This document shows, in pieces, positions 2,623 to 55,100 of a DNA stretch of 64,000 bases. The notes below the pieces were generated by a model that worked only from the letters and a program-made list of their open reading frames with translations, had not been told where the DNA came from and did not search any database. The DNA comes from Mobula birostris (taxonomy: Eukaryota). How positions within the stretch are numbered: the first letter of the stretch is position 1; every line of letters begins with the position of its first letter. The translations under genes were made by a program, and so were the position numbers. The stretch covers positions 82,294,969 to 82,358,968 of the forward strand of contig NC_092370.1 of the NCBI RefSeq assembly GCF_030028105.1, given 5' to 3'.

Positions 2623-2953
2623 TAGAAATCTCAAGGATTTGATGATTTACTTCCCAGGTTCTTGAAAGAGGTGACTTTAGAAATCGAGAATGCGCTGTTC
2701 ACATCTTCCAAAGTTTTGTAGATTCTGATACTGTTCCAGGGTGGAAAATGTTAGCTTTGTGTCTGTAATAGTGAAATGCTGAAAGCTGTAGTAATAAAAC
2801 ATCTTGAAAAGAATATTAAAATTGTACATCATCATTGTCATGGATTAATGAACTGGAAATCATGTTTGACTAATCTGCTAAAGGATGTGACTGACAGAAA
2901 GATAAGTGGAAACCAGTGGATATGGTGTATTTGCATTTTTGAAGGGTGTTCAA

Positions 2954-3240
2954 GGGTGTCACGGTAACGTAGCAATTAATGCCTCACTTTACAGTACCAG
3001 CAAATGCCAATCGGGGTTCAATTCCTGCCGCTGTTATTAAGGAGTTTGCATATTTTCCCTGTGACTGCAAAGGGTTTCCTTTGGCTGTTCCAGCTGCCTT
3101 CCACATCCCAAAGATGTAGTGAGTTGTTGGCGTGCAGGAAGCATGGCGACACTTGTGAGCCACCCACACAATCCTCATTGATTAACTTTGATGCAAACGA
3201 AGCATTTTACTATATGTTTCAATGTTCGTGTTTATCTTTA
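2954..3240 (+). mobile_element. tRNA-derived V-SINE (HE1-like)
   Basis: tRNA-like head with B box GGTTCAATTCC (3015-3025), then the V-domain ggagtttgcatattttccctgtgactgc...ccacatcccaaagatg. Confidence 0.75.
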
Positions 3241-3749
3241 GCTGTCGCACAGGAGGTCCATCAACAAAGTCAGAGCACATGTAATTGGGTACTGATATAA
3301 ATTGAGAATTGACTTTGGGACCAAATGCTAAGACTGATTTTGACTGTGAGGGATATGTCAGGGTTTGGACCCCAGTCTCTCAGAAGGTGGATTAAGAATT
3401 TTGCTTGAGGAGGAGAAATGTTATATTTCTAAATTTGCTGACAGTACTAAACTAGATGGGATTGTAAGAATCAAGGAGGATGTTTAGAGGTGTTCTGGGG
3501 ATATGGACAAGCTGAGTGAGTGAGAACATAGCAGATGGAATATAAAGTGGAAAAAAATATGTGCACCGCTTTGGTGCACATAATAGAAAACAGTACATTT
3601 GTTAAATGGTGAGAGATTGGGTATCACTGATACTCAAAGGGACCTGAGTGTGCTTGTATACAAGTCCCCGAAGGCCTGTATGCAGGTGCAGCAATCAATT
3701 AAGAGAGCAAATGGAATGTTAGAAAGGGAATTTGAATAAAGGAATATAT

Positions 3750-4305
3750 GAGAACACAAGAAAATAGAAGCAGGATTGGACCACCTGGCCCCTCAGAGCT
3801 CCTCCATTATTCAAACCAATCATGGTTGATCTGCCCGAGGCTTCAACTATTCATCGATGCCAGCTCCATATAGCCCTCAGTTATCTGATCTTATGAAATT
3901 TCATTTCTCTGTTTTAAATGTTTCCAGTGATCTACCCACCCCCCCACATCAAATCCTCTCAGATAGAAGGTTTCAGGGTTTTACCACACTCTGCAAGAGG
4001 AAATTTTTATGCACCTCACTTTTAAACAATTAGTCCCTTTCCTTGTAGTTATGTCTTGTTATTTGAGACCCTCCCACAATTGAAAACATCTCAACATCTA
4101 CTCTGACATATCCCCAAAAGGATTTTATCTGTTCACGTTTACCTGTCCCATTCTTCAAATCTCCAATGAATACAGATTTAACTTTGTTTTTAGCCTTTTA
4201 TGATACGACAACCCTTGCATCCCAGGAACTTGCCTAGTGATTCTTCTGTGGACTACCTTCAATGTTTGTATATCATTTCTTAAATAAAGTCACCAGAACT
4301 TTACG
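3750..4305 (-). mobile_element. CR1 3' fragment nested antisense in an older CR1
   Basis: Begins with the reverse complement of a CR1 3' end (aaatagaagcagga...ggcc) and splits the host GFEYRN|KEVLL motif. Confidence 0.7.
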
Positions 4306-12269: not shown

Positions 12270-12405
12270 GCAGACGCAAGAGACTGCAGATACTGGAATC
12301 TGGAGCAACAAACAAGGTGTTGGAGAAACTCAGCAGGCCAGGCAGCATCTGTGGAGGAAAATAGACAGGCGACATTTCAGGTCAAGACCCTTCATTTGGA
12401 CTGGT
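12270..12405 (-). mobile_element. PLE-derived terminal fragment with a decayed hammerhead
   Basis: Reverse complement reads ccagtccaaatgaagggtcttgacctgaaatgtcg...cagatgctgcctggcctgctgagt. Confidence 0.65.
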
Positions 12406-19473: not shown

Positions 19474-21825
19474 TAATAGAAACAAACCATATCTAGCAGG
19501 TCATTCAGTATCTGTGGAGGGACACAGAGTTCATGCCACATATTGAATTACCTTTCACTTGAACTGTTTATTGTTTCTCTCTGCAAGGTGCTGCCTGATC
19601 TACTGAATACTTCTAGCATTTTCTGTATTTTTTTCATATTTTTAGCATCTACCTTTTTTAATTTCAATTACTGCAGAAACTCGGGGTTAAGTCACATGTT
19701 CAAAGCCCCTTCTGACTTTCATACTCAGGGTGTTGTAGGTTCCATCCAGTTCCTGTCTTGTAAGTAGTGTGCCTAAAATATATGTAAAGACTTCTGCTCA
19801 GAAGTAGTGGAAGGTGTCTTAATTTTTTAATGTTCGTGACTGTCCAGTTGGTTTATTACCATGGTAAGATCTTAAAGCCTATCCAGTGAGGAATATTTTG
19901 AATTCCATCATAAATTGAAGTTTCAGTCTTGCATTTCACAAACGTGGACTGGTAATTGAATACTTTCAAGCTTTTTTTTGTCGAGTAAATTCTCCCAGCT
20001 TTTCCCCTTTTCACTTTCTTGATGATCATTTACTTACTTGGCTTTTATGAGTGTCATTTAACTTTGCTTCTGTGTCTTAATTTTAACCATAAATCCCCAT
20101 AACCATGGAGAAGTTCAGATGAACAGAGCTGCTATTATCATTCAGATTGGATTCATATTATTTATTGTCATGTACACCAGAGTGCAATGAAATTTTGTTT
20201 CTCACATGAAGCTCACATTGTAAACAGTGCAAGTGGTAATAATGAATACGGCAATAAATACAGGGATGAGTGCAAGAACAATGGAATGGTGCAAAATATA
20301 TCAGTGCAAAGTGTGGTAGTGTAAAAAGAAATGCTAAAGTGACATAATGGAAGAAGTAGAATTCAGGGTTTGAGAATGGGCAGCACCACTGGATAGGGGA
20401 TTTGAAAGAGGTGATGGTTCAGAGTTATCATATGCTGTTGATTCATAATGAATGCATATGATGAAAGTTTTAATTAAAAAATGAAACAATTAGTTGAAAA
20501 ATCCTCTGCATGTTATTGATACTGTAAAGCTTCAAATTGCTGCCCTGCTTATGCTCACTGCCCCAGTTGATATTTTTGCTTTAGTTATTCTTTAAATATA
20601 TTTCCAAAATTTTAGTCTAATTATATATACCAAAAAAGGTTGATATTATTCCCACATTTTGACTTTGTATTTTTTTAAAATTACTTAATGCTGAAGATCT
20701 GTTTTGTGTTAGATTAAATCAAAAAGAGTCTGAAAGAGAATGCCACTAAAATTTCAAAGTTATCAAATAAAACAAAATTAATGTCTGATATGCACAAGAG
20801 GGAAACTAGAATGAAAAGTGATGTCAGCTGTCTTCACAGTGCTTTGCAGCGTCTAGTCGGGGTAAATGTTGTGCTGCTGTACTTTACTGTATTATAGAAA
20901 ATAATAAAGTTCTCTCTTGTAAACTGAAAGCCCATGCCTGTGGACTGAATGGTCATTCTGCATGTTATTTCAAGCATTTTCAATGTTTGAGTAAAAGGAA
21001 CTACGGTTAGGTTATCTGCCTTATTATTTGCTGTTTTAAATTAATAAAGATGTACACAACAACATCAAAATGTCCTTAATGTCAGAAGTGTACAAAATCA
21101 TTATATGAGAGCAATCTGTAACTCCCTAGTCTCAGGTTTCTTTCATTTTATTTGAATTGTATTATCTTGTTTGCAGTTTCAAATGCTTTGTGGTAAAATT
21201 ACAGTGCAGGTAATAATTTGCAGATGTAACAATAGCTGTAATGTGAGCTGTATCCATTTACTGAAACTGAGCTGGGATCTGCTACTGGGTGCTGGGGGAA
21301 GGATGTGGTTTTTGCAAGTGTTGGGCTAAATCCTTTCTGTTCATCATTTTAGAAATGTGTTTTGAAGAAAATATGGCTTTTGTCTATGTTTAATTAGAGT
21401 TGGAATGATTATAGTGTGGAAGGAGATCATTCAGCCCATCAAGTCTGTATCAGTTCCATGTTACATCAATCTCATTTATCCCACTCACTTGGCCTCTCTC
21501 TGTATCCTTGTGAATTCTTTCCTTCCAAATACTTATCCATCTCCCTTTTGGATGCTATAATTGTATCTGCTTCCTCTGCTCCCCCTGCAGCGCATTCCAC
21601 ACCCTAACCACTGGCTGTGTAAAAAAAGTAATTCCTCATGTTAGTTTTACTTCTTTCTCAGCCACCTTCACTCTGTGCCTCTTTGTTCTCGACCTTACAT
21701 TAACGAGAACAGTTTTTTCCTATCTACTGTGTCTGTTACCTTTGTGATTTTACATAGCTGCGAACTCTCCTCACAACCTCCTCAGTTACAAGGAGAACAA
21801 ATCTGGTCTCTCCAGTAGTATATTA

Positions 21826-23431
21826 GAGTGGCATGCAAAAGTTTGGGCACCCCTGGTCAAAATTTCTGTTACTGTGAATAGTTAAGTGAGTAGAAGTTGA
21901 ACTGATCTCCAAAAGTCATAAAGTTAAAGATGACACATTCTTTTCAACATTTTAAGCAAGATTATTGTATTATTTTTGTTTTTTACAATTTTAGAGTGAA
22001 AAAAAAGAAAGGAGCACCATGCAGAAGTTTGGGCACCCAAACAGATTTGAGCTCTCAGATAACTTTTACCAAGGTCTCAGACCTTAATTAGCTTGTTAGG
22101 GCTATGGCTTGTTCACAATCATCGTTAGGAAAGGCCAGGTGATGCAAATTTCAAAGCTTTATAAATACGCTGACTCCTCAAACCTTGTCCCAACAATCAG
22201 CAGCCATGGGCTCCTCTAAGCAGCTGCCTACCACTCTGAAAATTAAAATAAATGATGCCCACAAAGCAGGTGAAGGCTATAAGAAGATAGCAAAGCATTT
22301 TCAGGTGGCCGTTTCCTCAGTTCATAGTGTAATTAAGAAATGGCAGTTAACAGGACTGGTGGAGGTCAAGTGGAGGTCTGGAAGATGAAGAAAACTTTCC
22401 GAGAGAACTGCTCGTAGGATTGCTAGAAAGGCTACGAGCAAAAGACCTTCAGGAAGATTTAGCAGACTCTGGAGTGGGGGTGCACTGTTCTGCTGTGCAG
22501 TGACACCTGCACAAATATGACCTTCATGGAAGAGTCATTAGAAGAAAACCTTTCCTGCATCCTCACCACAAAATTCAGTGTCAGAAGTTTGCAAAGGAAC
22601 ATCTGAGTAAGCCTGATGCACTTTGGAAACAAGTCCTGTGGACTGATGAAGTTAAAATAGAAATTTTTGGTCGCAATGAGCAAAGGTATGTTTGGAGAAA
22701 AAAGTGCGCAGAATTTCATGAAAAGAACACCTCTCCAACTGTTAAGCACGGGGGTGGATCGATCATGCTTTGGGCTTGTGTTGCAGCCAGTGGCACAGGG
22801 AACATTTCACTGGTAGAGGGAAGAATGAATTCAATTAAATACCAGCAAATTCTGGAAGCAAACATCACACCATCTGTAAAAAAGCTGAAGATGAAAAGAG
22901 GATGGCTTCTACAACAGGATAATGATCCTAAATACAGCTCAACATCCACAATGGACTACCTCAAGAGGCACAAGCTGAAAGTTTTGCCATGGGCCTCACA
23001 GTCCCCCGACCTAAACATCATCGAAAATCTGTGGATAGACCTCAAAAGAGCAGTGCATGCAAGACGGCCCAAGAATCTCACAGAACTAGAAGCCTTTTAC
23101 AAGGAAGAATGGGCGAAAATCCCCCAAACAGGAGTTGAAAGACTCTTAGCTGGCTGCAGAAAGCGTTTACAAGCTGTGATACTTGCCAAAGGGGGTGTTA
23201 CTAAGTACTGACCATGCAGGGTGCCCAAACTTTTCCTTCAGGCCCTTATCCTTTTTTGTTATTTTGAAACTGTAAAAGATGGAAATAAAAAAGTAATCTT
23301 GCTTAAAATATTAAAGAAGTGTGTCATCTTTAACTTTATGCCTTTTGGAAATCAGGTCATCTTTTACTCGCTTAGCTATTCACAGTGACAGAAATTTTGA
23401 CCAGGGGTGCTCAAACTTTTGCATACCACTG
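21826..23431 (+). mobile_element. Complete Tc1-like DNA transposon (IR/DR type, DD34E), 1606 bp, inactive
   Basis: TA TSDs at 21824-21825 and 23432-23433; ~200-bp TIRs with internal direct repeats (GCAxAAGTTTGGGCACCC). Confidence 0.95.
22206..23211 (+). pseudogene. Tc1 transposase pseudogene
   Basis: Paired-like domain MGSSKQL...GEGYKKIAK...RSGR*. Catalytic WTDE / QDND / SPDLNIIE, with 34 residues between the second D and E. Premature stops and a small deletion. Confidence 0.92.
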
Positions 23432-23830
23432 TAAAATCCTGCAGATGTTATAAATCTATAATGAAAATAGAAAATGCCAGCAACAGTCAGCAAGTGAGGC
23501 AGCATCTTTAGAAAGGGAAACATAGTTAACATCTCAGGTCAAAGGACTGGTATTGAATATTTTTGATATTGTCTGTCTATTTCTGTGCCTCCCAGATAAC
23601 TTAAGTCCCTAATCCTTTTCCTTAAGTGTCAGGTCTAGAACCGTACAAGTCATGGGGCAAGCATAGGATGATAGGATCTCAAAATCTATGTATACCATGC
23701 ATGGCTGAAGCCTTTCCACCCACTGATCAAAAGTAAATTCATTGTATGCTGGTCATATATGAGCTGAGAGAACTTGTGGTGATACAGCTTTGGCAATGTC
23801 TTCTGTGTGTCAAGATTTCTTGACATATCG

Positions 23831-29250: not shown

Positions 29251-29730
29251 ATCAGAATCAGAATCAGGTTTATTATTACTGACATAAGTTGTGAAATGTG
29301 TTTTTTTGCAGCAGCAAAACAAGTACAGGACAAGACATAAAAGTTACTAAAAGTTATGAAAATTAACATAAAGTGCAAAAAATGAATAATGAGATAATGT
29401 TCGTGCATTCATTGACTGTTCAGAAATCTGAAGGCGGAGAGGAAGAAGCTGTTCTTAAAATGTTGAGTGTGAGTCTTCTGGCTCCTGTTCAACACACACA
29501 AAATTCTGGAGGAATTCTGCTAATCAGGCAGCTTCAATGGAGAGAAATAAACCGTCGAAGTTCCTCTCCATAGATGCTGCCTGACCTGCTGAGTTCCTCC
29601 AGCATTTTGTGTGTGTTACTCTGGAATTTCAGCATCTGTAGAAACTCTTGTGTTTATGACTTCTGGCTCTTGTACCTCACAGTGTTAGTAACAAAAAGAG
29701 GGCATGTGTCAAATGGTGAGAGTCTTTAAT
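29251..29730 (-). mobile_element. Rex1/Babar 3' fragment hosting a fold-back insertion
   Basis: (ATTCTG)n tail at 29251; the host sequence resumes after 29660. Confidence 0.7.
29489..29659. mobile_element. PLE-derived fold-back element with a 14-bp TSD
   Basis: Inverted arms; TSD cttctggctcctgt (29475-29488) / cttctggctcttgt (29660-29673). Confidence 0.8.
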
Positions 29731-32043: not shown

Positions 32044-32256
32044 TGCAAACACGAAGAAATCTGCAGATGCTGGAATTTCAAGCAACACACATAAAAATTG
32101 CTGGTGAACACAACAGACAAGGCAGCATCTATAGGAAGAGGTACAGTTGACGTTTCGGGCCGAGACCCTTCATCCCTTCTGCCCGAAACGTTGACTGTAC
32201 CTCTTCCTATAGATGCTGCCTGGCCTGCTGTGTTCACCAGCAATTTTTATAGTTAT
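32044..32256. mobile_element. Young PLE-derived fold-back element
   Basis: ~70-bp near-perfect inverted arms centred in the hammerhead region; flanking direct repeat agccattttattag (32030-32043 / 32257-32270). Confidence 0.85.
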
Positions 32257-37160: not shown

Positions 37161-37607
37161 TGCCATCTCATTCCTGAACCATAAACTGACGTGCTCCTAC
37201 TTTTATCTCATCAATTGACAACAAAGATTTTAGATTTGCCTTGATGCTCAAATTTAAGCAGGCAGTGGAAGAAATAAAGGATGTTGTATCATGTACATGC
37301 CTGCCATCGCCTTTTGGGGGAATCACGCTCAGAATTGCCCAGGTTCAACTGTTCCACTCAGAAACAATTATGAGCATCATCAAATCTGTGCAAAGTAACT
37401 CTTATATGTGACTTACAGAGAGAAAGCATGTGGGGATTAGTCCAATGTCTAGACAACGCAGGTCACTTTTTCAATAAATATTTAATGGTATTTCTCCCTT
37501 AACTACCCACTTCGCTGGGATATTTAGGATGATTTTCTGTTTTATTTAGGCATTCTGTTAAATGTTTGGATACAGATAGAATGCTCACTGTTTTTTATCC
37601 ACCACAG

Positions 37608-37811
37608 GAAAGCTCTGAATTTGGGAATACTGCGAGACCCAGGATCCGAAGTTGAAGACAGACAATACCAAGTAGACCTGCAATCCATTACCATTGGAAC
37701 AGCCCTCTGGGATCAGCTAAAGCCTGAAAAGGAAGTTAGCAAAGGAGGACTTTGTGCAGAAAATGAAAGGAATTATCAGAATCCAGCACTGGAATGGAAT
37801 ATGGCCAGTAG
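37608..37811 (+). CDS. VPS13B: VPS13B internal coding exon (204 bp, phase 2 on both sides)
   Basis: Acceptor ttttttatccaccacAG and donor AG|GTGAGA. Translates (Q)KALNLGILRDPGSEVEDRQYQVDLQSITIGTALWDQLKPEKEVSKGGLCAENERNYQNPALEWNMAS(S), which matches human VPS13B as recalled: RALNLGILRDPGSEIEDRQYQIDLQSINIG...QNPALEWNMASS. Confidence 0.96.
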
Positions 37812-39789: not shown

Positions 39790-41065
39790 ACATGGACGCA
39801 CTTTCGCAAACTCCCACAACCCACCAATGATCCTGTGTTTTCAGTATCTGAGGTGGAAGTGAGAACATCCTTCAGGAGGGTGAACCCACAGAAGGTATCT
39901 CACCCAGGTGAGGTACCTGGCTGAGCAATAAGGACCTGTGCTCATCAACTGGATGGAGTATTCACTGAGATCTGTGACCTCTCGCTTTGGCTTCAATTGT
40001 ACTGGTACCTAAGAAGAACATGATAACCTGCCTCAATGACTGTCTTCCAGTAGAACTTACATCCAGTGATGAAACATATCAACTCTTGCCTGAGAAGCAA
40101 CTTGGATCTCCTCCAATACTTTATAATTTATTGTCGCCAAACAATTGATACTAGAACGTACAATCATCACAGCGATATTTGATTCTGTGCTTTGTGCTCC
40201 CTGGAGTACAAATCGATAGTAAATATTAAAAATTTAAATTATAAATCATAAGTAGAAAATAGAAAAGGGAAAGTAAGGTAGTGCAAAAAAACCGAGAGGC
40301 AGGTCTGGATATTTGGAGGGTACCGCCCAGATACGGGTCAGGATCTGTTCAGCAGTCTTATCACAGTTGGAAAGAAGCTGTTCCTAAATCTGGCCGTACG
40401 AGTCTTCAAGCTCCTGAGCCTTCTCCCGGAGGGAAGAGGGATGAAAAGTGTGTTGGCTGGGTGGGTCGTGTCCTTGATTATCCTGACAGCACTGCTCCGA
40501 CAGCGTGCGGTGTAAAGTGAGTCCAAGGACGGAAGATTGGTTTGTGTGATGTGCTGGGCTGTGTTCACGATCTTCTGCAGCTTCTTCCGGCCTTGGACAG
40601 GACAACTTTCATACCAGGTTGTGATGCACCCTAGAAGAATGCTTTCTACGGTGCATCTATAAAAATTAGTGAGTGTTTTAGGGGACAGGCCAAATTTCTC
40701 TAGCTTTCTCAGGAAGTAAAGGTGGTGGTGGGCCTTCTTGGCAGTGGACTCCGCTTGGTTGGACCAAGTCAGGTCATTTATGATATTGACCCCAAGGAAC
40801 TTAAAGCTTTTGACCTGTTCCACTTGCGCACCACCAATGTAAATGATCACCCTTTTCTATTTTCTATTTATGAATTATAATTTAAATTTTTGATATTTAC
40901 TATCGATTTGTACTCCAGGGAGCGCGAAGCGCAGAATCAAATATCACTGTGATGATTGTACATTCTAGTATCAATTTGCCTACTGGCACAATAGGTCCAC
41001 AGCAGGTGCCATTTCATTGGTTCTTCACCCGACCTTGGAACATCTGGACAGCTAAGATTCATACA
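39790..41065 (+). mobile_element. Older Rex1/Babar RT fragment, split by a younger antisense Rex insertion
   Basis: SVSEVEVRTSFRRVNPQK...PKK....CLND; LDLLQ|FAY resumes after 40976. Confidence 0.7.
40118..40976 (-). mobile_element. Young Rex1/Babar 3' insertion with an inverted copy of its own 3' UTR at the 5' junction
   Basis: Intact 170-aa C-terminal ORF at 40338-40850; 40850-40976 is the reverse complement of 40143-40269. Confidence 0.9.
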
Positions 41066-46460: not shown

Positions 46461-47656
46461 AAAAAAAGCTTCAGTTTATTCTTCAAGAAAAAAAATGCTT
46501 TTTATTGTAATAATAAGTACTTCCATCCTGAGGAGGAATTCAACATAGAGATATGAACAAACAAATGTATAAGTTAGAAATAAATCTCTGGTTCTTTCAG
46601 CCTACTTTGCCATTTAATAAATTCATATTGATTTGCTTGTAAGTGCATTCAGCCTCTTCACACTAAATTTTCACTACCTCTTGCTTATCAAGTATCTAAC
46701 TATCTACCACAACGTTGATTTAAATGCCTTTATGGAAGAGAGTTCCAAAGACTCGTGAGAGAAAAAAATATTTACTTAACTCCGTCTCAGTGAACAGTCT
46801 CATATTTTCAAACTGTGACCCTAGAGTTCTAGATTCTTCCACGAAAGGGAACAGTTTGTTTTTCTTATGCTGAACTTTCTTCGTTTTTCAATTATTTTCT
46901 GTGGCTTTCTTCATACTACATTTCTGTTCTGGATTGAAAAATATGGACACCTGTTTTGCTAAATAATAGATCAAGTTGTTGACTGGCTCGAGGGAATTCT
47001 AGTATAATTAAGTCAGAAGGTTGGGTGATTATTGGAACATTAAATGGGGAAAAAGACCAAGCATATGAGGTAAATTCTTTCAGACAAGGTTTTACTTCCA
47101 TGGGGCAAGATGTGTTTATTCAATCCACAACTGGAAGATGGTTTCACGTTTTGAATATATTAATAAGCCTAAGGAGAGCAGAACTGTCTTTATATACATT
47201 ACTCTTTATGAATCAAGAGGACTTCCAGGCAAAACTACCATATCATTGACATATCACCTTACCCAAAAATATTTGGTGTCCAGGACCATGACCTTCTTGG
47301 GCCATGGATTGGACATTCTTCGTCCCATGGGCTGCTTGACTATTTCCTACCCTACAGGATGCCGGATCTGTCAGTTGGATTGATAAGAGAGTGTGAATCT
47401 CCATAATATACAGAAACCAAGGATTTTGTGCACCACTAACCCACTTTTCTCATCTCTACAACCCATCCCAGTAAATATTTTGACCTTAGTTATTAAGCTG
47501 TAACTCATTTATGGAGTGTACGGAAGGCTGCGTCGAACAATCTGATTTAATTATTTGGAAATGAACTGTGTTTATTTGCCAGTTTGACAACTGGTCTGTA
47601 ACTAAGTTGATGCAGAGGAATAATAACATTGCATTACTATATGTCTTTTTACACAG

Positions 47657-47780
47657 TATTCGTCGTCATCAAGAGCGAAGGGCAATATTAACTCCAATTT
47701 TGACAGACTTCAGTTTGCGAATAACAGCTGCCCCTGCCATTCTTTTTAAAAAACTCTCACCTGAGAATGCACAGACTGAG
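47657..47780 (+). CDS. VPS13B: VPS13B internal coding exon (124 bp)
   Basis: Acceptor tctttttacacAG and donor GAG|GTCAGT. The split codon AG+T gives Ser, then IRRHQERRAILTPILTDFSLRITAAPAILFKKLSPENAQTE. This continues the previous exon and matches human IRRHQERRAILTPVLTDFSVRITGAPA. Confidence 0.96.
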
Positions 47781-48562: not shown

Positions 48563-48706
48563 GAAATAGTAGTGTGCGGCCATTCACTGGAAGTCAACGT
48601 TACCACAAGTCTGGATTTCTTCCTCAGTGTAGCTCAAGTACAGCTCTTACAACAGCTGATAGAAGCCAATATGCTTGGAGTGGTGGTGTCAGACCAAATG
48701 TCAGAG
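48563..48706 (+). CDS. VPS13B: VPS13B internal coding exon (144 bp, phase 0); absent from the ORF track in this frame
   Basis: Acceptor cattgtAG and donor GAG|GTAAGC. Translates EIVVCGHSLEVNVTTSLDFFLSVAQVQLLQQLIEANMLGVVVSDQMSE, matching human EILVCGHSLEVNITTNLDFFLSVAQVQLLHQLIVANM. Confidence 0.96.
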
Positions 48707-49581
48707 GTAAGCTCATACCTGACTTCAATTTCCTTTCTCATCTTTTGAATTGCATTTACGAAGATGGAAGATGATGCTCAAGCACAGGGATAATGTAAGA
48801 ATCGTGACATTAAATTTGATCCATAACATACAGATTAATAGTGTTGAATTAAGAACAAACCCCAGCTATTGTTCTCCATGCATTAGGTAGAATTTACAGC
48901 ATAGAAGCAGGTCATTCAATCTAACTGGTCTGTGCTGCTGTTTATGATTTTCATTGGAATAAAAATTATGAAAGAAGTTCAACCACAAGTTATTTGCTTG
49001 TGGTTTGAAGGTCTTGATTCACATGAATACTGGTTGCCAGCATTTCAAAAGCTAATGCAAAGAAACAAGCAACAAAGGGGATCCCTGCTGAATGTTCTAA
49101 TGGAAATGTGATCTCATTAGGGACAACTGATGTATGGAGCTGCGAGGTAAACAATGGTCTTTTAAACTATAGCTGACATTAAAAAAATGAAGAATAACAC
49201 AGATTATGCCTTGCAGAATATCACATTACAGTCTCATGCTATGTGTATAGTTTTCTTTTGGAAGCCAGAAAACAACTGGGGAATAAAGTCGGACACTTCG
49301 CACCAATATGATTCACAGATTGTGGTTTTGAACTTTAATTGGAAGGGAGAAGTGTTCTGAATTATAGGACTATGAAAACTTCTCTTTTTTATCAATCAGC
49401 TGTATAGTTTTGTCACGTTTTAGTGTATATTTAAATAATATGTCTGTATGCATTTCTTTACTGTGTAGTTAGCGTACCTGCTTATCATTTGTAATTCTTT
49501 ATATTTCGACAGTAGTTTCAGGTCGGTACCCAAATTAATTTTGACAAAAATTACCTTTCTTTTCCAAATAGCTGAGAAAAA

Positions 49582-51092: not shown

Positions 51093-51785
51093 AGACCATA
51101 AGACCGTAAGACATTGGAGGAGAATTAGGCCATTTGGCCAATTGAGTCTGCTCTGCCATTTGATCATGGCTGATCCATTTGCCTCTCAACCCCATCCTCA
51201 TGCCTTTTCCCCGTAACCATTCACACCCTGACTTATCAACCTCCGCCTTAACTGCTCTTAATTACTTGGCCTCATACCCGTATGTAGCAATTAATTCCAC
51301 AGAATCAACACCCCCTGAATAAATAAATTCCTTCTCAGCTCCATTCTAAGTAGACATCCCTCTATTCTGAGGTTACGCCCTCTGGTCCTAAACTCCCCAC
51401 TGTAGGAAATATCCTCTCTACATCCACTCTGTCTAGGCCTTTCAACATTCGATAGGTTTCAATGAGATTTCCCCCCTCCCCCTCATTCTAAATTCCAGCG
51501 AGTACAGGCCTAGCCCAGAACAATCAAACGCTCCTCATATGATAAGATTTTCATTCCAGGAAACCATTTTCGTGAACTTCCTTTGAAACCTCTCCAATAT
51601 CAGCACATCCTTTCTTAGATAATGGGTACAATAGTACTCTTAGGAAATGAGTATTGCTCACAATACTCCAATTGAGGCCTCTCCAGTGCTTTATGAAGCC
51701 TCAGCATTACATTGTTGCTTTTATACTCTACTGCTCTGGAAATGAATGCAAACATTTGTGTTCGTTACTGCCAACTCAACCTACA
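51093..51785 (-). mobile_element. CR1 3' fragment
   Basis: agaccataagaccgtaagacattggagga... followed by the ORF2 C-terminus. Confidence 0.8.
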
Positions 51786-51816
51786 ATTAAGAATATAGAA
51801 CATAGAACATAGAAGT

Positions 51817-52155
51817 CTGTTGTTGTGTAGCTTGCCAAGCTGCTAGTTAGCTTGCAGGCGTTTCGTTACCCTGCTAGGCAACATCATCGGTGCAACTTTG
51901 AATGAAGTGTTGATGATCTACATTGTTCGGCTTTTATGTGTCCTGTGATTAGTCAGTTTGTGTGTGTGTGTGTGTGTAAACGGACTAATCACAGGACACA
52001 TAAAAGACGAACTATGTAGATCACCAACACTTCATTCGAAGTTACACCGATGATGTTGTCTAGCAGGGTAACGAAACGCCTGCAAGCTAACAAGCCAGCT
52101 TGGTGAGTCACTCAACAACAGCATCCTCAACCCGAGGTACAAACTTTTTTCAACA
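51817..52155. mobile_element. PLE-derived palindrome (second family) with a (GT)9 spacer and a hammerhead-like motif on each strand
   Basis: Arms 51817-51959 and 51978-52121 are about 90% reverse-complementary. Each contains CCGATGA-t-stem II-GAAACGCC. One arm has a ~30-nt extension. Confidence 0.8.
51960..51977. repeat. (GT)9 microsatellite
   Basis: Read directly from the sequence. Confidence 0.95.
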
Positions 52156-55100
52156 TCACACAGAACTCTACAGCACATTACAGGTCTTTTGGCCCACAAT
52201 GTTGTGCCGACCATGTAACCTACTCCAGAAACTGCCTAGTATTTCCCTACCGCTTATTCCTCTATTTTTCTAAGCTCCATGTATCTATCTAAAAGTCTAT
52301 TAATTAAAAACTCTATTATATCCTCCTCTACCATCGTCGCAGTGCAATCCACTCACCCACCAATCTCTGTGTGAAATACTTACCTCTGGATACCTATTTC
52401 CGTGACCCCTCGTGTTAGCCATTTCAGCCCTGAGAAAAAGCCTCTGGCTATCCAGATGATCAATGCCTCTCATCATCTTATACACCTCTATCAAGTCACC
52501 TTTCAACCTCCGTCACTTGACAAGGAGAGAAGGCCAAGTTCACTCAACCTGTTCTCATAAGGCATGCTCTCCAATCCAGGCAACATCCTTGTAAATCTCC
52601 TCTGCACTCTCTCTATAGTATCCACATCCTTCCTGTGGTGAGGTGACCAGAACTGAACACAGTATTCCAAGTGGGGTCTAGCTAAGGTCTTATATAGCTG
52701 TAACACTACTCCACAGCTCTTGAACTTAATCCCACAGTTGATGAAGGCCAACACACCATACGCTTTCTTAACCACGCTGCATAGCAGCTTTGAGTACCCT
52801 ATGGACATGGATCCCGAGATCTCTCTGGTCCTCCGCACTGCCAAGGGTCTTACCATTAATACTATGTTCTGTCTTTAAATTTGACCTGCCGGAATGAACC
52901 ACTTAACACTTATCTGGGCTGAACTCCATCTGCCATATCTCAGTTCTGCATCCCATCAATGTCCCGCTGTAACCTCTGAGAACCCTCTGAAATATTCACA
53001 CCCCCCCCCCAACTTTTGTGTTGTCAGCAAACATACTAATCCACCCTTCAACTTCCTCATCCAGGTCATTTATAAAAATCACAAAGAGGAGGGGTCTCAG
53101 AACAAATCCCTGCAGAACACCACTGGTCGCTGACTTCCATGCAATATACGATCCATCTATAACCACCCTTCTGGGGGCCATTCAAGTCTGGATCCACAAA
53201 GCAAGGTCTCCTTGGATCCCATGCCTCCTTACTTTTTGAATGAGCCTTGCATGGGAAACCTTATCAAATATTAAAATCCAATACACTACATCCACTGCTG
53301 TACCTTCATCAATGTGTTTTGTTATATCCTCAAAGAATTGAATCAGACTCATAAGGCATGACCTGCCCTTGACAAAGCCATGCTGACTATCCCTAATCAG
53401 ATAATGTCTCTCCAAATGCTCATAAATCCTGCCTTTCAGGATCTTCTCCTACAACTTGCCCACTTGTATATCTCATCCGGACCCAGTGATTTATCTAACT
53501 TAATGCTTTTCAAAAGCTCCAGCACACCGACTTTCTTAATGTTTATATGCTCAAATATTTCAGTCCACTGTAGGTCATACCCACAATTGCCAAGGTCCTT
53601 TTCCCTGGTGAATACTGAAGCAAAGTATTCATTAAGTACCTTCACTACCTCCTCTGACTCCATGCATACGCTTGCACTATTGCACCTGATTTGTCCTACC
53701 CTCACATGGCTCATCCTCTTGCCCTTCGCATACTTATAGAATGCCTTGGGGTTTTCTTCAATCTTGCTCGCAAAGGCCTTCTCATGGCCCCTTCTAGCTC
53801 TCCTAATTTTATTCTTAAGCTCCTTCCTGACAACCTTGTAATTTTCTATAGCTCCAACAGTACCTAGTTTCTCTTACCTTTCATAATTGTTTCTTTACTT
53901 CTTAGCTAGATTCTCTACATCCTTTGTACACCATGGTTCTTTTACCCTACCATCCTTTCCCTGCCTCAATGGAACATACCTGTGCAGAACGCCATGCAAA
54001 TGTCCCCTGAACATTTGCCACATTTCTGCTGTGCATTTCCCTGAAAAATCTGCTCCCAATTTATGCCTCCAAGTTCCTGCCTAATAGCATCATATTTCCC
54101 CCTACCCCAATTAAATATTTGCCCAAATTGTCTGCCCTATCCCTCTCCAGCACTATGGTAGAGGAGACAGAGTTGTGATCACTACCTCCAAAGTGCTCTC
54201 CCACCAAGAAATCTGATCCCTGACCAATAGCAGTTCAAGTACAGCCGCTCCTTAAATTGACTTATCTACATATTGCATCAGGAAACCTTCCTCAATGCAT
54301 CTAACAAACTCCATCCCATCCAAACCCCTTGCTCTAAGGAGATGCCAGTCAATTTAGGAAAGTTAAAATCCCACATCACAACAACCCTATTATTATTGCA
54401 CCATTCCAGAATCTGCCTCCCTATCTGCTCCTTGATGTCTCTATTACTATTGAGGGTCTATAAAAAAAACACCCAGTAGAATTATTGCCCCCTTCCTGTT
54501 TCTGACTTCCACCCACAATGACTCAGTAGACAATCCCTCCATGACTTCTTCCTTTTTTGCAGCTGTGATATTATCCTTGATTAGCAATGCCACGCCCCCC
54601 ACCTCTTTTGCTTCCCTCCCTGTCTTTTTTGAAACATCTAAAGCCCGGCACACTCAGCACCCATTCCTGCCCCCGAGACATCCAAGTCTCTGTAATGGCC
54701 GCAATGTCATAGTTCTGTGTATTGATGCACGCTCTTAAGTTCATCCGCCTCGTTTAGGATGCTCCTTGCATTAAAATAGAGACATCTCAAACCATCTGGT
54801 TAAGTGCATCTTTGGTCTATCATCTGCCTATCCTTCCTCACAAACTCTCTACAATCTGTCCCTACTTGTGCACCAACTGCCCCAACCTCTGCCTCTTCAC
54901 TTGGTGCCCACACTGCTCCAAACCTAGTTCAAACCTTCCCCAACAGCATTAGCAAACCTTCCTCTCAGGATATTGGTTTCCTTCCAGTTCGGGTACAACC
55001 TGTCCCAAATGTACAGGTCTCCCCTTCCCCAGAAAAGGTTCCATGATCCAAGAACTTGAAACCCTGTCCCCTATACCATTAATACTATCTCCTCAGCCAC

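Follow-up and report, generated by a model that had tools for sequence, protein, structure and literature searches.

Two inverted arms, each with a hammerhead-like motif that departs from the canonical core at the same two positions, face each other across (GT)9 in the window (the whole 64,000-nucleotide stretch of Mobula birostris contig NC_092370.1 that was analysed). How did both arms of one palindrome come to carry the same altered ribozyme core? According to the original prediction, which gave no element class, either a dead ribozyme had still been mobilised or the family used a variant core, and the (GT)9 was filler added by the reverse transcriptase (RT) or captured sequence.

Structure of the palindrome and of its target

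The features of the locus are collected in Table 1. When the two arms (51817-51959 and 51978-52121) were aligned with each other, 130 identities, 13 mismatches and one gap were counted, in agreement with the two arms of about 143 bp and about 90% complementarity first described; the spacer between them is likewise (GT)9, no more and no less. Besides these mismatches and the gap, the arms have different ends. The element is asymmetric, since a tail is present on the right arm, which it extends to 52157, and the left arm has none. When folded as RNA, the whole palindrome gave a hairpin of -233.7 kcal/mol (z = -25 against 100 shuffles).

Both flanks belong to the (CATAGAA)n-type tail of a LINE on the minus strand, which upholds the proposed host sequence. 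The ORF2 motifs of this LINE suggest that it is CR1-type. No target-site duplication could be defined at the insertion, the longest word common to both flanks being 5 nt in length and lying inside the tandem unit.

Table 1. Positions of the palindrome, its target and the neighbouring VPS13B exons in the window
Feature	Position	Strand	Remarks
Interrupted (CATAGAA)n-type LINE tail, left part	51789..51815	-	
Left arm: PLE pLTR 3' end, tailless, inverted	51817..51959	-	family positions 1-143/144
Left-arm minimal type I hammerhead motif	51852..51895	-	U4C at 51889, T88A at 51872, U16.1C at 51858; stem I intact
(GT)9, native (AC)n run of the left arm	51960..51977	-	left-arm 5' breakpoint is the right edge of the run
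Right arm: pLTR 3' end	51978..about 52120	+	begins at family position 1, exactly after the CA run
Right-arm minimal hammerhead motif	52042..52085	+	changes at 52048, 52065 and 52079, and a stem I mismatch
PLE 'tail', 37 of the family's 42 nt	52121..52157	+	right arm only
Decayed LINE, 3' end and ORF2 remnants	52158..55000	-	its tail is the insertion target
VPS13B exon	37603-37809	+	
VPS13B exon	about 47650-47780	+	match 47598-47780 extends 5' into probable intron
VPS13B exon, nearest upstream of the palindrome	48563-48712	+	

Identity of the family

A search with one arm as query revealed a dispersed family, in which the best copies among the best 40 of 261 candidates scored were 86-90% identical. 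From several searches and fetches, 196 loci were obtained and merged into 113; 108 of these contain a total of 151 hammerhead-spanning arms, matches beginning after family position 75 being excluded from the set. Because the loci are best-scoring matches and one query selected tailed arms, the counts given below lean towards young and tailed copies.

In longer copies of the family, RT-thumb and Cys-containing GIY-YIG motifs were found upstream of the arm, a part that the window copy does not contain. A 157-aa piece of the family matches RT+PF26215 proteins (E from 1e-35 to 1e-19), of which the named ones are mostly from sharks. Furthermore, protein P0004, in which RVT_1 (E 2.9e-8) and GIY-YIG (E 0.008) were detected, matches many family loci over its residues 363-701 with 50-60% identity. 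On a family copy itself, the Pfam GIY-YIG match stayed below the cut-off (E 0.051), and short family peptides gave sub-threshold scores against Pfam and NCBIfam; the support for this domain comes from homology to RT+EN proteins. On account of the RT-thumb and GIY-YIG remnants and of the homology of the longer copies to RT+PF26215 proteins and P0004, the family is, on sequence evidence, an EN+ Penelope-like element (PLE). The layout of the EN motifs and the match to the geometry of the Poseidon element PAc suggest that it belongs to the Penelope/Poseidon clade.

In the family majority line, the hammerhead of the pLTR overlaps the start of the ORF: an ATG within the ribozyme core opens a frame of 37 codons that runs through the tail. 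In the five longer regions that were read, the ORF was represented by broken 3' parts only, and no intact full-length copy was recovered. The family is old, with a divergence of about 5-6% at non-CpG sites, and the core changes of the window copy are private to it. The window palindrome is an old, 5'-truncated PLE insertion of published configuration and an ordinary decayed stub, inverted pLTR pairs with a one-sided tail being the published norm for such PLEs. No tandem array was found at the window palindrome, so that it does not show the head-to-tail arrangement of retrozymes. At another family locus (L116), a degenerate tandem array (2930-4070) adjoins the family palindrome on either side.

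Origin of the (GT)9 centre

Members of the family have an (AC)n run directly 5' of the arm. At least three units were present in 75 of the 89 arms that keep the upstream pLTR, and the longest CA run in those arms had a median of 6 and a maximum of 33 units. The (GT)9 of the window is, as far as the sequence tells, the left arm's own and not a foreign spacer, which overturns the proposal of RT filler or captured sequence.

The run does not attract breakpoints either. Among 86 paired arms, 8 breakpoints fell in the 27-nt bin that contains the CA run, and the three bins of equal width that follow it held 10, 7 and 8. Filler and inversion hot spot were both rejected as roles for (GT)n on the grounds of the native run and of this flat density. 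Both breakpoints lie within the CA run in 2 of 43 pairs, namely the window copy and a second locus (L071). The centre of L071 is nearly identical to that of the window: the tailless arm retains the CA run and the tailed arm begins right after it, with a short duplication.

Inverted pairs and the one-sided tail

Opposed arms are present as a pair at 43 of the 108 loci and a single arm at the remaining 65. The centres of the pairs range from about 0 to 1.5 kb, and further loci have a short second arm that falls under the cut-off. The palindrome is a normal form of the family.

The 3' ends of the arms are bimodal (140-150 and 183-185), by which a tail of 42 nt is defined. When the 43 pairs were sorted by this tail, 37 combined a tailed with a tailless arm, 2 had two tailless arms, none had two tailed arms and 4 were unclassified; among the 39 pairs that could be classified, 37 are thus mixed (binomial test against 0.5, P 1.4e-9). 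The use of a tailed-arm query raises the share of tailed arms but leaves the absence of doubly tailed pairs unexplained. In the window pair, and in 25 of the 37 mixed pairs, it is the tailless arm that reaches further 5'; the tailed arm does so in 9 of the 37.

Changes common to both arms

Both window arms depart from the family at the same four non-CpG positions: 53 T>C, 71 T>C, 88 T>A and 102 T>C. Arm positions 71 and 102 correspond to U4C and U16.1C, the two core departures that had been recognised in both arms from the start, and 88 T>A disrupts the base pair that closes stem II. The G at position 144 of both arm ends is a commoner variant (8 of 87 arms) and may be junctional on the left.

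Two subfamily markers, a T at position 45 (23 arms) and a G at position 54 (21 arms), were followed within insertions. At position 54, the marker was present in both arms of 6 insertions, in neither arm of 28 and in one arm of 2 (P 1.4e-5); at position 45, the corresponding numbers were 6, 25 and 3 (P 1.4e-4). In addition, 31 of 4217 sites had a derived change common to paired arms, whereas unrelated pairs have 0.0030 such changes per site, a rate lower by a factor of about 2.4. The concordance of the markers and the excess of sharing indicate that both arms normally come from one donor.

Both window arms were most likely copied from one donor that was already mutated, and the core changes would then predate the inversion, as had been supposed. 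A dead ribozyme that was still mobilised is the best reading of this copy, a likely one though short of proof. Taken as a whole, we hold it to be probable that the palindrome arose as a Penelope/Poseidon-type insertion, now old and truncated at the 5' end, with head-to-head pLTRs and one tail, and that its arms likely derive from a single donor RNA with the four changes.

Some observations weigh against this account. Neither among 149 other arms nor in targeted searches (best 40 candidates scored in each) was a donor or a sibling with the four-change haplotype found; 137 of the 149 arms carry none of the four changes, 12 carry one and none carries two. The missing sibling counts against the single-donor model because that model would prefer one. 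The four shared changes are also five times the family rate, which was likewise counted against it. With 0.92 shared changes expected in the window pair, the Poisson P of four is 0.014 when a single pair is considered. For four in at least one of the 43 pairs, P is about 0.46, which makes the window pair, picked because of its shared changes, unremarkable among them.

The same PLE insertion could instead have been made from a canonical donor, the changes having arisen after insertion in one arm and having spread to the other by hairpin-driven conversion. Such a history appears rather unlikely to us, while having several points in its favour: with a centre of only 18 nt the DNA can form a hairpin, the haplotype is private and no sibling was found, the four changes lie within 50 nt, and three of them are T>C, as expected of GC-biased conversion. 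However, tight palindromes show no excess of sharing, the shared changes amounting to 5 of 638 sites for centres of up to 100 nt and to 26 of 3579 sites for centres above 100 nt, and three tight palindromes (L027, L076 and L095) share none. Changes of the W>S type are also common in private differences (116 of 278). Finally, three private differences lie inside the putative conversion tract, and the divergence of the window arms is not clearly reduced (9 private differences versus 13 expected, P 0.17).

A-to-I editing was considered as a source of the T>C changes and rejected by reasoning, as it would alter one arm only and the sites are not elevated in the family. More core changes common to paired arms were noticed elsewhere: both arms of L090 carry C3U and both arms of L093 carry A9U.

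Proposed mechanism of insertion

From the observed anatomy, family membership, canonical family core, native (CA)n run, tail asymmetry and arm concordance, we infer the following course of events for a single mutated donor. An RT-endonuclease supplied in trans would nick both strands of the AT-rich LINE-tail target. Two cDNAs would then be primed on one donor RNA. Each of the two internal start sites, near family positions 143-147 and 185, would serve for one of them, and both cDNAs would read through the uncut hammerhead site. The cDNAs would stop early, one after copying (CA)9 and the other just before the run, and their joining 3' end to 3' end would yield the head-to-head pair.

Several properties of PAc, the Poseidon element of Anolis carolinensis, as described by Frangieh et al. 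(2024, PMC11167929), are in line with this scheme. Both target strands are nicked and extended by PAc, which is predicted to be a dimer; two RT start sites delimit the tail, and two 3' ends are obtained in vitro. Insertion in vitro is independent of hammerhead activity, hammerhead mutants inserting equally well.

Alternatively, the same insertion could have been built from the same donor by fold-back self-copying, the tail being removed later from one end. This route is possible and, in our estimation, improbable. Self-priming has been proposed for the palindromic junctions of PLEs (Arkhipova et al. 2013, PMC3846280), and the one-sided tail has been ascribed to endonuclease-mediated resolution (Craig et al. 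2021, PMC8557442). Fold-back would give the arms every template change and every first-pass RT error in common, and the 9 mixed pairs in which the tailed arm reaches further 5' would fit. In the window pair and its like (25 of the 37), however, the tailless arm extends further 5' and the other arm alone is tailed, so that neither arm is a simple copy of the other; moreover, both 3' ends obtained in vitro correspond to the two RT start sites in the account given of PAc (PMC11167929). Double priming and fold-back followed by trimming are not cleanly separable; both predict microhomology at the junction. A proposal of double priming for PLE inversions was not found in the literature searched, which misses most subscription papers.

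The hammerhead core in the window copy and in the family

Neither window arm has the complete invariant core (C3, U4, G5, A6, G8, A9, G12, A13, A14 and the A15.1-U16.1 pair). The claim that each arm folds as a hammerhead holds for the minus arm to the extent that stems I and II form, no better than in shuffles (z = -1.1); it fails for the plus arm, in which G>A at 52044 leaves a mismatch in stem I and no hammerhead stems form (-9.3 kcal/mol, z = 0.04). In the fold of the full hairpin, stems I and II can form in neither arm. An Rfam scan of the window brought no hammerhead family to E 1. Rfam matches to miRNA precursors over the hairpin were discarded, being far under the gathering scores and reflecting the palindrome only.

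When the frequencies of CUGAUGA and CCGAUGA were compared, the family proved to be canonical and the variant private to the window copy. U4 is T in 136 of 143 other arms and C in 3; U16.1 is T in 136 of 145 and C in 4. In these arms C occurs at either site at the background rate and never at both sites together. Exact 34-nt patterns gave 3 CCGA matches, 2 of them the window arms, versus 4 canonical ones, numbers that are too small by themselves; targeted searches with exact variant patterns (best 40 candidates scored) returned the window copy only and no sibling. Outside the window, departures from the majority concern 71 of 1449 observations in the core and 818 of 14425 in non-core positions; core and non-core decay alike, which indicates neutral decay. 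The 5' ends of copies do not pile up at the hammerhead cut site, 1 of 18 beginning at 104 in a small sample, not chosen for this purpose, of matches that start after position 75 in the fetched loci.

Pairing-preserving double changes in the stems were found at CpG pairs only. The lack of covarying stems, which the original prediction had regarded as fatal to it, is thus real outside CpG pairs; the missing compensation is expected of dead copies of one master that decay neutrally, and it does not refute the ribozyme origin.

A family or subfamily with an active variant core (CCGAUGA...GAAACGCC), combined with (GT)9 as RT filler or captured sequence, is very improbable. Both changes are indeed present in both arms, and U4C, which considerably lowers activity in vitro, still permits viroid infectivity and so keeps enough activity in vivo for a viroid, according to Perreault et al. 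(2011, PMC3088659). Nevertheless, the scarcity of C at U4 and U16.1 and its absence from both together, as well as the lack of any arm with two of the four changes among the 149, speak against such a core; according to the same source, no pair of the hammerhead consensus is better conserved than A15.1-U16.1. As for the filler, the CA run is native and few pairs are broken twice within it. Because of U4C, of the change in the conserved A15.1-U16.1 pair and of the bare activity that PLE minimal hammerheads have even with a canonical core, the window motifs are predicted to be inactive. The odd core is likely dead damage that is private to the window copy and not a new type of ribozyme.

Assembly of the locus

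No sign of an assembly chimera was seen. Contigs from a public run, which may be the assembly's own sample, span both outer junctions with 0 differences; the left junction is also spanned, with 1 difference, by a contig that bears a second organism label. The contigs of this second label cover 51699-51863 only, with one unlocated difference, and a short piece of 37 nt that lies on the core may come from a paralogue. A fold-back artefact of assembly is practically untenable: no contig examined bridged the (GT)9 centre, where contig placement skipped the repeats, but 13 mismatches and one gap separate the arms, whose ends also differ, the outer junctions are covered exactly, the left one also under the second label, and L071 has a nearly identical junction.

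VPS13B context

Three VPS13B exons were matched upstream of the palindrome (Table 1), and homologues that extend to residue 1999 revealed no further one in the window. As VPS13B continues beyond the matched residues, the insertion downstream of these exons is very likely intronic. With the element on the sense strand, the VPS13B pre-mRNA is predicted to form the long hairpin that had been anticipated. The copy appears to have decayed neutrally and to have no function, and any such hairpin would be incidental.

Comparison with known elements

The palindrome resembles the insertion units of EN+ PLEs, as described in PMC3846280 and PMC8557442, in its head-to-head inverted pLTR ends, heavy 5' truncation, one-sided tail, pLTR hammerhead, lack of an obligatory target-site duplication and C-terminal GIY-YIG, the last being found here in longer copies. 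The published tail measures 30-40 bp and is present at one end only. Unlike these units, the window copy is about 340 bp in length, has both breakpoints at an internal (CA)n run and carries private changes in its core, and the family tail is 42 nt.

With PAc, the family has in common the start of the ORF inside the hammerhead, the AT-rich target and two 3' ends that lie about 110 nt into the ORF and bound an AC-rich tail. In PAc, the ORF begins at stem II, and reverse transcription is initiated 111-118 nt into the ORF (PMC11167929). The family differs from PAc in being old, and the likeness is one of geometry, not of sequence comparison.

Features of the minimal type I hammerheads of metazoan PLEs described by Cervera and de la Pena (2014, PMC4209133) also recur: a helix I of 5 bp and a helix II of 8 bp, an unpaired base before stem II, a palindromic 15.2-16.2 and no real helix III. 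Pairs of such motifs in opposite orientation, with 100-700 bp between them, had already been noted there. In contrast to the compensated C3U/G8A variant in that report, U4C and U16.1C of the window are uncompensated and private.

Like the non-LTR retrozymes of Li et al. (bioRxiv 10.64898/2026.07.22.740005), the element is non-coding, PLE-derived and equipped with a type I hammerhead. Retrozymes are defined there as head-to-tail tandems, whereas this element is inverted and belongs to a family that runs on into PLE coding sequence.

Implications for hammerheads in PLE mobilisation

The near-rule of one tailed and one tailless arm (37/39), together with the concordance of the arms, gives genomic support for a double priming that links the PAc start sites to the inversions. 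Since comparison of the two arms recovers the donor sequence, the need for a hammerhead in cis during PLE mobilisation in vivo becomes testable genome-wide; the window copy, being a single one, is insufficient to decide it.

A more speculative idea, to which we give little credence, is that RNAs with a crippled ribozyme were the preferred templates, because reverse transcription, once begun downstream of the hammerhead site, has to pass it. The core changes found in both arms of a pair, namely U4C and U16.1C in the window, C3U in L090 and A9U in L093, would then be fossils of such donors. On this reading, the ribozyme-dead RNAs would have been mobilised in trans by an RT dimer that used each of the two start sites once. 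Outside the window, 2 of the 31 shared changes lie in the core, which is no enrichment, at low power.

Other inverted repeats in the window

A small palindrome at 32091-32250 has arms of 73 nt that are 92% complementary and 14 nt apart. It has no BLAST similarity to the element at 51817 and is probably the other family of the original prediction. At 29491-29617, inverted arms of 57 nt (84%) lie 13 nt apart, and this repeat recurs at 12308 and 38287. Inverted arms of 127 nt (94%), 580 nt apart, surround a LINE-like coding fragment at 40143-40976. Finally, inverted arms of about 190 nt at 21817-23440 flank a DDE-like transposase frame (22504-23208), in an element that we presume to be of the Tc1/mariner type.
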